Shown here piece after piece: positions 4,699 to 7,600 of a DNA stretch of 64,000 nt. The stretch comes from Escherichia coli O157:H7. GTDB taxonomy: Bacteria > Pseudomonadota > Gammaproteobacteria > Enterobacterales > Enterobacteriaceae. Position numbers: made by a program. The stretch lies in NCBI RefSeq assembly GCF_013167455.1, contig NZ_CP038328.1; one strand, written 5' to 3'. Each line of letters starts with the position of its first letter. The stretch's first letter is position 1.

Positions 4699-7600
4699 TA
4701 ATGAGGGACGTATTTGTATTAGTCGCGACTTGATCTGACACATGGCCTTGAAAGGTTGAGAGTTACCGGTTTTGATATGAGTGTCGAATCCTTATCCAAA
4801 ACAAGAGGTAACTCTCATGCTTCATACTGCCAATCCCGTCATCAAACACAAAGCCGGTTTGCTCAATCTGGCTGAAGAACTCAGCAACGTATCAAAAGCC
4901 TGTAAAATCATGGGCGTTTCGCGTGATACGTTTTATCGTTACCGCGAACTGGTCGCTGAAGGCGGTGTGGATGCGCAGATTAATCGTAGTCGCCGCGCTC
5001 CTAACCTTAAGAACCGTACCGATGAGGCAACTGAACAGGCTGTTGTTGATTACGCCGTCGCTTTCCCGACACATGGTCAGCACCGGGCCAGCAACGAACT
5101 GCGTAAACAGGGGGTTTTTATCTCCGACAGTGGTGTCCGTTCTGTCTGGTTACTCCATAACCTTGAGAATCTCAAAAGACGATACTGAACAAATTTTATC
5201 AGGTGACGTTCCGTAAAAAGTTGTATGGAGTTCTCGATGCAGTCGGCGCGACTATCAGTACCCCCGCTGAACCCTGGACTATCGGGCCGCCGTACTGGGG
5301 CATGTCACCCTGGCGTGCCGCTGGTTTTCCGCTAATGGTTTATTTCCTCTTTCTTTCCCGGCAAGAATTTATTTTAATCCGGAAGGATTATTTATTTTCA
5401 GATAGGGACTCACATTAAACACGTAACATTTTAATTAATGCATGGCTGAATATGTATTACACAATGTCAGATATCGTAAAAGACCAGTGCAATTCTATGT
5501 AAACTCTCTGACTGTTCATTTTATTTGTTGTTTCAGGGTCGGAACTCACCCTCAATAAACAACTGAATACGAGTAGATATTCATCGTCTGAGCTATATGG
5601 CTTTACACAATAGCCGACATGTCTTTTCTCAGTCAGGAATTTTACTTTTCCTCACTACGAAGTTGACGACTTCGATATGGGATAGACTCTTAATTCAAGC
5701 AATTACTCTGCACAAGCATCAGGCAATCCAGCTCCAATATTTGTTATAAAATAATGCGTAACATTAATTTCACCAACAAAAAAAGGTTTACACCATCCCC
5801 TTGCCCTGGTATCTTACCATATTTACACCACACTTTTTTTGTATCTGGATCATTCTTTGATACGATTTTCGCCACTTGTTCCCTGGCCCTCACTGTCAAT
5901 GTTTTCTTAAACCTCCCCCCATCATCATTTGTTAGGGAAAAATAAGAAAAAAATAATCATCTTCTACATTTGTGTATATTGATATATCCACCGCTACGTG
6001 CGGAAAAAAATCTGGGAGCCATGTAAAAACTCCATCATTTTCTGGTATTGCCATATAGTTTATGTAATGTTTACTTACAAGAGATTCATCTTTGTATAAA
6101 TAAAGATAAGTAATTACGCATAAAACAACAATGATTATAATAGCAATAATAAATATTATCATCTTTGATAGATTACTTGAGATAGCCAGCATCTTGTAAA
6201 GCCTTTATCGTTTCTTTATGCTCTGGATTAATATAATCACTACATCTATCTGAGCAATCTGTTGTTGATGGACATGTCAACCCATGGTCATTTACAGCCA
6301 AGTCTTTTTTATTATCTTCAATCATTTCAGAATGGGATAGCTTTACTTTTCTGCCGTACATACCGAACAGATTTAACCCGTAATCTCTAATCTCTTTTTC
6401 ATAACCCAGCCCTTTCGCCGATCGGCTAACACCAGCGTCATTTAATTTAGACACTCGACAAAATGCCATACAATGGAAAAATTGATCAGTCCCACCTAAA
6501 TTTAATCTCTTCATATCTTCATAAGTATCAGATAATATATCCCATGCTCTTTGATGGTTTAGTTGATCTTTTCTTCTTATTAGCGCTACATCTGCGGGAC
6601 TTAACCCTAATGGATCAATACCATTCACCGGATTCAGCGGATACGCATACAGACTCCATCCCCCCTCCAGCCCTATCGGGTCCTGAGTGATATACCGCCC
6701 CTGCAACGGATCGTAGTACCGGTTCCGGTTGTAGTACAGCCCCGACTCCTTATCATACTGCTGCCCCGGCAGCCGGTACGGCTGGTGCAGGTGATGCGGG
6801 TTCTCCTCATTCAGCTGGTTGCCCCATTCATCATACTCCCCGCTCCACGCCGTATTGCCGTCTTCGCTGATGAGCGCCAGCGGCAGGCCCCGGTGGTCGC
6901 AGTGGTAAAGATGAACTTTTCTCGCCGGTGTGTATTCCGGCTCCACCTGTCTGGCCAGTTGCTCCACCGTCAGCCCGCACTGCGCAAGCCACGCCCGGCT
7001 TTCACTGCTCACGCGGTCTGCCCGGATTTCTTCCTCCAGTCTGTCCAGCAGCCGCACCAGTTCAGCCGGAAATACCACACCGTGCCCGTCCTCGCTCCCT
7101 TCCTGCTGCAGCTTCTCCGCCAGGCTGCGGCGCTGCGCTTTCTCCCGCTCACCGTTGTCTGTTTCGATGCGGATGAGCGGCGCGAAGCTTCCCGGCTCGT
7201 ATACCGTCTGGATACGCGTGGTGTCGGTCTGTACCGTCGTCAGCCGGTCGCCGTCCCACCCGTACCACGTCACCTCCGGTTTCCGCGACAGCGACATCCA
7301 TCCCGTCAGGTCACGCCCGCGACGCCACACCCGTTTCCCCGTCCGGCGGCCCAGCGGGTCGTAGAGGTAGCGGCTCTCGACCAGTGGCTCGCCATGCTGT
7401 ATCCGCGTGTAGAACACCAGGCGGTGCTGGCTGTCGTAGTGGTAGTGGTGGGTCCGCTCGTCGTCCGTCCGTATCACACCCGCCGGGATGCGGTCCGTCT
7501 TCTCCGTCAGCCTGCCGTATTCATCGTGTCGGTAGACATAGTGCGCATCCTCCGCGATGCGGTTATCCGGCCACGCCGTGAGCGTGCTGTCCGGGTGTAG

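Follow-up and report, generated by a model that had tools for sequence, protein, structure and literature searches.

In Escherichia coli O157:H7, a 97-nt 5′ stub of an rhs gene (ylbI) and the interior of a crippled insertion sequence (IS) element of the IS481 family (ylbG) are joined tail-to-tail. Both fragments lie beside mnmH in a 64,000-nt stretch of contig NZ_CP038328.1 (assembly GCF_013167455.1), hereafter called the window. The pair is probably inert debris at the mnmH-proximal end of the RhsD island, with the stub as the remnant of a second, tandem rhs gene. The 1.5 kb surrounding the two fragments show 100% identity to E. coli O157:H7-type chromosomes, and the gene order reads allR-allA-allS-mnmH(selU)-ylbG-(96-nt partial coding sequence)-hypothetical-RHS core protein-ybbP. 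This is the RhsD locus of E. coli in reversed orientation relative to K-12, where the curated list of MG1655 gives rhsD, ybbC, ylbH (pseudogene), ybbD (pseudogene), ylbI (pseudogene b4632, 96 nt), ylbG (b0502) and selU. The K-12 ylbI, located between ybbD and ylbG at NC_000913.3 529497..529592, is the same feature and corresponds to window positions 5241..5336, whereas ylbG corresponds to 4817..5188. The window carries the O157:H7-type allele, which shows no material difference from K-12. The components of the pair and the resident rhs gene are listed below.

4714..4740, plus strand: IS481-family left inverted repeat (IRL), TTGTATTAGTCGCGACTTGATCTGACA
4714..5181, plus strand: IS481 segment A, IS nt 1 to ~468, comprising the IRL, a 5′ untranslated region (UTR) with a hairpin over the ribosome-binding site, and codons 1 to ~121
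4817..5188, plus strand: ylbG open reading frame (ORF), 123 aa, K-12 b0502, holding only the helix-turn-helix (HTH) N-terminal domain; pseudogene 'missing C-terminus' in the Prokaryotic Genome Annotation Pipeline (PGAP)
5173..5181, plus strand: internal IS deletion junction, CAAAAGACG versus CATAAGACG in the intact copy, an 8/9-nt microhomology at which segments A and B overlap
5173..5241, plus strand: IS481 segment B, IS nt ~932-1000, coding for HKTILNEFYQVTFRKKLYG.LD from the C-terminal part of the transposase
5240..5241, no strand: junction between the IS interior and rhs nt 97, with the dinucleotide CA common to both parents
5240..5336, minus strand: rhs 5′ stub ylbI, 32 codons and one further nt, with ATT instead of ATG; K-12 pseudogene b4632, partial coding sequence in PGAP
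5337..5396, minus strand: rhs-type leader with a Shine-Dalgarno sequence, AAGAGGAAATAAACC, followed by the start codon position
6173..10369, minus strand: resident full-length rhs gene, 1398 aa, from the ORF list; 'RHS element core protein' WP_000014802.1 in RefSeq

The rhs 5′ stub

Without gaps, the stub (5336..5240, minus strand) aligns to nt 1-97 of the resident rhs gene (10369..10273); 77 of the 97 positions are identical (79.4%). This local alignment scores 57, whereas ~2000 windows of 146 nt drawn at random from the sequence have a mean of 8.2 and a maximum of 14. The first-pass annotation had placed ~95 nt of about 80% identity to the rhsD start at 5245..5340 and had proposed an alignment as a check. 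The alignment bears out the match, at a similarity far above chance, and shifts its span by a few bases. The start codon reported there as changed to ATT is indeed seen at 5336..5334, where the resident rhsD has ATG. The translated 32 codons match positions 1-32 of the NCBIfam profile NF041261 'RHS element core protein' (E 5e-12) and share 28 residues with the resident Rhs, which identifies them as the conserved Rhs N-terminal segment. The match scores 44 bits, far under the cut-off of 2000, and the stub contains neither the YD-repeat core (~1200 aa) nor the RHS repeat-associated core domain nor a variable toxin tip. Since the rhs homology ends at nt 97, where IS481 sequence begins, the stub represents a gene fragment and no functional member of the family. 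It has no start codon with which to form a translatable gene, and it is annotated as a pseudogene or partial coding sequence in both K-12 and PGAP. The GC content of the stub (63.9%) is close to that of the rhs core (64.4%), versus 32-36% in the neighbouring DNA.

The differences between the stub and rhsD are distributed unevenly. The 20 substitutions fall at codon positions 1, 2 and 3 in the numbers 2, 2 and 16, and among the 17 codons that differ, 13 are synonymous and 4 non-synonymous. This third-position bias, together with the synonymous excess, indicates that the stub and rhsD diverged while both coded for protein. The codon-position pattern thus excludes chance similarity as well as neutral decay of a recent rhsD duplicate.

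The upstream sequence points to a different rhs lineage. The leader of the stub bears no relation to that of rhsD; its homolog comes from E. coli TUM18781 (L013, replicon NZ_AP023206, found in the plasmid collection), where two full-length rhs genes stand in tandem and the second of them has the related leader. The homology covers the leader and the first 97 nt, with 76% identity across 157 nt, and the stub and this second gene share a 'VLI(G/V)APT' motif. The 'VLI' motif and the 50-60 nt upstream of the stub resemble this second gene, unlike rhsD. Moreover, another E. coli rhs gene (L012) is nearer to the stub than rhsD is (83.5% versus 79.4%). The TUM18781 locus shows that tandem full-length rhs genes exist in E. 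coli, and tandem clade II and III rhs genes have been described in Salmonella pathogenicity island 6 (SPI-6) of S. Typhimurium (Jackson et al. 2009, PMC2935791). Such tandem loci keep a full-length second gene, whereas the window keeps 32 codons of its presumed counterpart.

These observations bear on the idea that the stub is a duplicate of the 5′ end of the resident rhsD, produced by local duplication or rearrangement and then altered by neutral mutation. The stub does lie on the rhsD strand, in the same island, and is 79% identical to its first 97 nt. However, neutral decay predicts an even distribution over codon positions, in place of the counts of 2, 2 and 16, and both the leader and the greater closeness of the L012 gene connect the stub with other rhs genes. 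In addition, E. coli lineages differ by no more than 2.3% in this region. The 20% divergence of the stub therefore predates its spread through the species, and decay on that scale since a duplication within E. coli is implausible. On the codon-position pattern, a duplicate origin appears largely refuted already, and we regard it as scarcely credible. Therefore, the earlier suggestion of a decayed second rhs copy holds in part: the remnant of a second copy is the best-supported reading, but the 16 of 20 third-position differences and the leader and 'VLI' motif of another lineage show that this copy is no decayed rhsD.

The IS481-family remnant and the two junctions

The ylbG product matches profile positions 2-112 of 284 of NF033577 'IS481 family transposase' (E 2e-25) and the Pfam domain HTH_29 (E 3e-20), and thus possesses the N-terminal HTH domain of an IS481 transposase. 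Its score of 89.9 bits lies under the family cut-off of 224 because the ORF is truncated; an intact relative reaches 287 bits. The ORF was listed as 4781..5188 with a GTG start, but its true start is the ATG at 4817, matching the extent of K-12 ylbG. Hence the first-pass call of a transposase N-terminal fragment is confirmed and assigned to IS481, with its length adjusted from ~124 to 123 aa. The catalytic integrase core of the ~346-aa transposase is missing, together with IS nt ~469-931 and ~1001-1203. In place of inverted repeats at both ends and a target-site duplication, only the left repeat at 4714 is present, and no right inverted repeat, target-site duplication or further IS481 piece was found within the 64-kb window.

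Three plasmid-borne copies served for comparison: an IS with an intact 346-aa transposase on E. coli plasmid P707_1 (L008), one with an intact 347-aa transposase on an E. albertii plasmid (L019), and a degenerate copy on a pAA-type plasmid (L002). The alignments to all three begin exactly at 4714. According to the intact copies, the complete IS spans ~1203 bp and is bounded by the same left inverted repeat and an imperfect right inverted repeat. The remnant retains the IRL, the 5′ UTR hairpin and the HTH domain at 86-96% nucleotide identity to the intact copies, whereas it is devoid of the integrase core, the right inverted repeat and ~675 of the ~1203 bp. The left-end hairpin (4757..4817, plus strand) has an 11-bp stem, GAGAGTTACC.../...GGTAACTCTC, with a predicted energy of -25 kcal/mol and a z-score of -4.3; the stem spans the Shine-Dalgarno sequence and adjoins the transposase ATG. 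At the same end, the Rfam family psRNA2 (RF02349) gives a sub-threshold match at 4643..4814 on the minus strand (34.4 bits against a gathering threshold of 65, E 3e-6). A known RNA family was rejected here, as the well-aligned part of psRNA2 corresponds to the IS481 left end and 5′ UTR read in antisense; judging from this alignment, the psRNA2 'sRNA' family itself looks like an IS end.

The remnant is chimeric with respect to the sampled IS lineages. Segment A is 95.7% identical to L019, 93.8% to L002 and 85.6% to L008, whereas the 69-nt segment B is 94.2% identical to L008, 81% to L019 and 82% to L002. The L008 and L019 lineages are 12-20% apart throughout their interiors. If segment B were L019-like, at least 13 mismatches in 69 nt would be expected with P ~6e-6, while the P value for segment B being nearer to L008 than segment A is amounts to only ~0.02. 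At the junction of the two segments (5173..5181), ~463 bp of the IS interior are lost and the reading frame is shifted, which creates the ylbG stop codon at 5186..5188. From these identities, the parent would be either an unsampled mosaic IS, or two IS copies that were fused at the A/B junction with deletion of the intervening DNA.

The second possibility proposes that two directly oriented IS481-family copies were fused by deletion at the CA(A/T)AAGACG microhomology; a toxin tip and immunity genes that belonged to the lost rhs gene may have been part of the deleted DNA. It agrees with the opposite affinities of the two segments (A, 95.7% L019 and 85.6% L008; B, 81% L019 and 94% L008) and with the finding that just one of 72,556 plasmid records matches segment B at more than 90%. 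On the other hand, segment B comprises just 69 nt, the test of its closeness to L008 reaches merely P ~0.02, and IS lineages recombine, which makes an unsampled mosaic parent equally possible. We consider this fusion possible, though the less probable course. It is a variant of the proposed history and leaves the debris verdict unaffected.

The second junction joins the IS interior to the rhs stub. The IS homology extends to 5241 and the rhs homology to 5240, and the junction lies within the transposase gene at ~IS nt 1000 of ~1203, which is ~200 bp before the position of the right inverted repeat. The IS fragment runs rightward on the plus strand and the stub leftward on the minus strand, so that their broken 3′ ends face each other. 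The head-to-tail arrangement first assigned to the pair is therefore incorrect; the fragments are convergent. A listed 71-aa ORF at 5203..5418 is an artefact that follows the transposase frame of segment B and then continues antisense to the stub.

In the products of transposition, target DNA is attached to the termini of an IS, whereas illegitimate recombination produces internal junctions. The position of the rhs junction within the transposase gene and its 2-nt microhomology indicate an illegitimate deletion, as opposed to transposition or IS insertion, and the IS-mediated disruption suggested earlier is not upheld. A corresponding history would place the insertion of an IS481 element at codon 33 of the second rhs gene and attribute the present junctions to IS-mediated events at its termini; it draws on the direct contact between the IS remnant and the stub. 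It also accounts for the intact IRL against core DNA 12 nt past mnmH, which is the signature of an insertion or adjacent deletion on that side. Nevertheless, the rhs junction at ~IS nt 1000 shows a mere 2-nt microhomology, and neither a right inverted repeat nor a target-site duplication is present, which makes such an insertion unlikely.

Proposed history and possible residual function of the pair

In the history that we favour, the island would once have held a second full-length rhs gene of another rhs lineage, in tandem with and downstream of rhsD and equipped with its own leader. An IS481-family element would have been located past the 3′ end of this gene and pointing at it, at the border between island and core beside mnmH. 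A deletion at the 2-nt microhomology would then have taken everything from ~IS nt 1001 to rhs nt 98, including the right end of the IS, any toxin tip and immunity genes, and ~4 kb of rhs. We infer that this single deletion cut the second rhs gene to 32 codons and truncated the IS at the same time. Another deletion, at the 8/9-nt microhomology, would either have taken the ~463 bp out of the IS or have joined two diverged IS copies, and the start codon of the stub would have mutated from ATG to ATT afterwards. Each of these events would have happened a single time and would predate the spread of the island to about half of E. coli.

The distribution of the locus is in line with a single origin. 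Among 5426 complete E. coli genomes, 2743 carry at least 80% of 5190..5935, and six strains with up to 2.3% divergence share both junctions unchanged. The identity of the junctions and their presence in about half of the genomes point to one old event. BLAST of 5190..5935 against the same genomes returned either the same truncated locus or rhs 5′ ends of no more than ~84% identity, and no intact ancestor. Two partially matching strains, H24 and H25, were considered as ancestral states and rejected, as they carry secondary IS3 insertions.

Several points weigh against this history. An intact second rhs gene at this locus occurs in no genome examined, and the best non-self matches of the stub in the 5426 genomes (~82-84%) are rhs genes located elsewhere. 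A scan of one genome per species with the query TAAACCATKAGCGGAAAACC returned just two mis-binned E. coli-like contigs of metagenome-assembled genomes (MAGs). The tandem-gene history is thus drawn from anatomy and analogy. Furthermore, segments A and B resemble two IS481 lineages, so that a deletion within a single IS would require an unsampled recombinant element. Finally, the stub may still be transcribed, given a promoter listed upstream of it (see below).

The two MAG contigs, L014 and L015, are binned as 'Collinsella' and 'Alistipes' and contain E. coli-like rhs-locus sequence, L014 being 99% identical to the window; they look like binning contamination in public MAGs. L015, matched at 1..158, carries another short rhs 5′ stub, which adjoins an ISEc1-associated repeat.

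The stub also differs from the orphan rhs fragments known from the same island. Like ylbH-ybbD in K-12, it resides on the same strand downstream of the main rhs gene and is a by-product of rhs rearrangement. However, the orphan fragments consist of the 3′ core, a toxin tip and an immunity gene, and are reusable by recombination, whereas ylbI is the extreme 5′ end and has no core 3′ motif, toxin tip or immunity gene. The fragment corresponds to nt 1-97 of rhs and is followed by IS481 sequence on its own strand, so the displaced cassette of the first-pass annotation, which would be a 3′ core-plus-toxin piece with its immunity gene, does not fit. Being an extreme 5′ end, ylbI is not a product of the C-terminal displacement model, and 5′ stubs are not discussed in the paper that describes that model (Jackson et al. 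2009, PMC2935791).

Judging from its composition, the pair is expected to retain no function: the stub comprises 32 residues without a start codon, and the transposase is devoid of its catalytic domain and right inverted repeat. The earlier reading of the pair as debris, a non-functional rhs 5′ fragment beside a truncated transposase, is therefore retained. In the six-strain alignment, ylbI has at most one variable site, and ylbG has six, at codon positions 1, 2, 2, 2, 3 and 3, one of which is a frameshift. Other strains harbor IS3 insertions or frameshifts in the region, and PGAP flags the frameshifted ylbG alleles. In this small sample of six strains, the ylbG variation fits neutral evolution.

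According to a genomic study by systematic evolution of ligands by exponential enrichment (SELEX), the spacer between ybbD and ylbI contains a constitutive sigma-70 promoter (PMC3946193). A simple promoter consensus scan of the same spacer gave nothing notable. Residual transcription of the stub is possible, without evident consequence. Apart from the SELEX entry (PMC3946193), a literature search for ylbI and ylbG yielded only mentions in gene lists.

This promoter, reported upstream of ylbI, is among the features that would suit a domesticated YlbG, an HTH protein acting as a regulator or as an inhibitor in trans of IS481-type transposition, with the stub and promoter kept in a functional unit. 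YlbG is annotated in K-12 as a 'putative DNA-binding transcriptional regulator', and it retains a complete winged-HTH domain, a ribosome-binding site with its hairpin and the cognate left inverted repeat. In contrast, the substitutions between strains show no synonymous bias, frameshifted and IS3-interrupted alleles occur, and PGAP calls a pseudogene, which together make domestication very improbable. IS481-family elements are common on E. coli, E. albertii and Salmonella plasmids. A specific form of the proposal, that YlbG could be a trans-dominant inhibitor of incoming IS481-family elements or a local regulator, perhaps modulated by convergent transcription from the rhs leader or promoter upstream of ylbI, is highly speculative. 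Inert debris from a second tandem rhs gene remains the preferred reading.

The RhsD island and the place of the debris in it

The surroundings of the pair contain the following additional features.

4709..10792, no strand: RhsD island, in place of the ~230-bp mnmH-ybbP intergenic region of island-free E. coli, which is rich in repetitive extragenic palindromic (REP) sequences
5385..5567, no strand: AT-rich segment of 183 nt, 86% identical to a segment of the RhsE locus in E. coli ampC_0069 (L005 6001..6185)
5744..6192, minus strand: ybbD, an immunity-type gene 3′ of the rhs toxin tip, split into ORFs of 86 and 51 aa, both matched by NF011298 (163 aa)

The mnmH-side edge of the island coincides with the IS481 remnant. 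In the island-free strains L009 and L010, mnmH is followed by ~230 bp of REP-type sequence and then ybbP, and their homology to the window stops at 4703/4708 and resumes at 10793. The left inverted repeat starts 12 nt beyond the mnmH stop codon. Because the island-free strains match only to 4703/4708, this repeat constitutes the mnmH-side edge of the RhsD island. The borders of the site in the window are 4702..4713 and 10793..10798. Across E. coli, the mnmH-ybbP site is found in three states: empty, with ~230 bp of REP-type repeats; occupied by the RhsD island; or occupied by a type VI effector island of the hcp-Tle1-DUF2931x3 type. Loci L009, L010 and L011 were used for this comparison of states; the third state carries hcp, Tle1 and three DUF2931 genes. 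At the other side, the island contributes the ybbP terminator, a hairpin with a T-run at ~10762..10790 on the minus strand, just 3′ of ybbP. An origin of the island as a composite transposon was rejected, as a second IS481 piece is absent from the window and none is located at the ybbP-side boundary.

The AT-rich segment is located between ybbD and the stub. Its copy in ampC_0069 is flanked by an unrelated 150-aa ORF on one side and by an ISAs1 (H-repeat) copy on the other. Variation peaks in ybbD, at 5.6 variable sites per 100 nt compared with 1-1.6 in the flanks. This gene forms an intact 163-aa ORF (WP_000879780.1) in L016-L018, and K-12 has it as a pseudogene. With the matching toxin tip attached here to a full-length Rhs, it may be asked whether the 86-aa ybbD product still confers immunity. 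The C-terminal tip of the O157-type rhs gene (6173..6881) corresponds to the orphan ylbH of K-12 (L004 6950..7660), with homology up to ~6881, and the O157-type locus has neither the K-12 rhsD tip nor ybbC. Since the orphan ylbH tip of K-12 is the own tip of the O157-type rhs gene, the strains differ by one step of C-terminal displacement or deletion; the classical rearrangement has also acted here.

The pair itself is already known, as ylbI and ylbG are annotated pseudogenes in K-12 and partial coding sequences in RefSeq PGAP. Our analysis adds a description of both junctions and the island edge at single-base level. The pair matters little in itself, being ordinary debris, and its two pieces are catalogued for the bacterial genome that has been studied best. 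At an earlier stage, the RhsD island probably contained a tandem of rhs toxin genes from two different lineages, and it was trimmed by simple deletions at microhomologies and not by transposition. This adds a footnote to the gain and loss of genes at rhs loci and may help the annotation of similar rhs 5′ stubs elsewhere.

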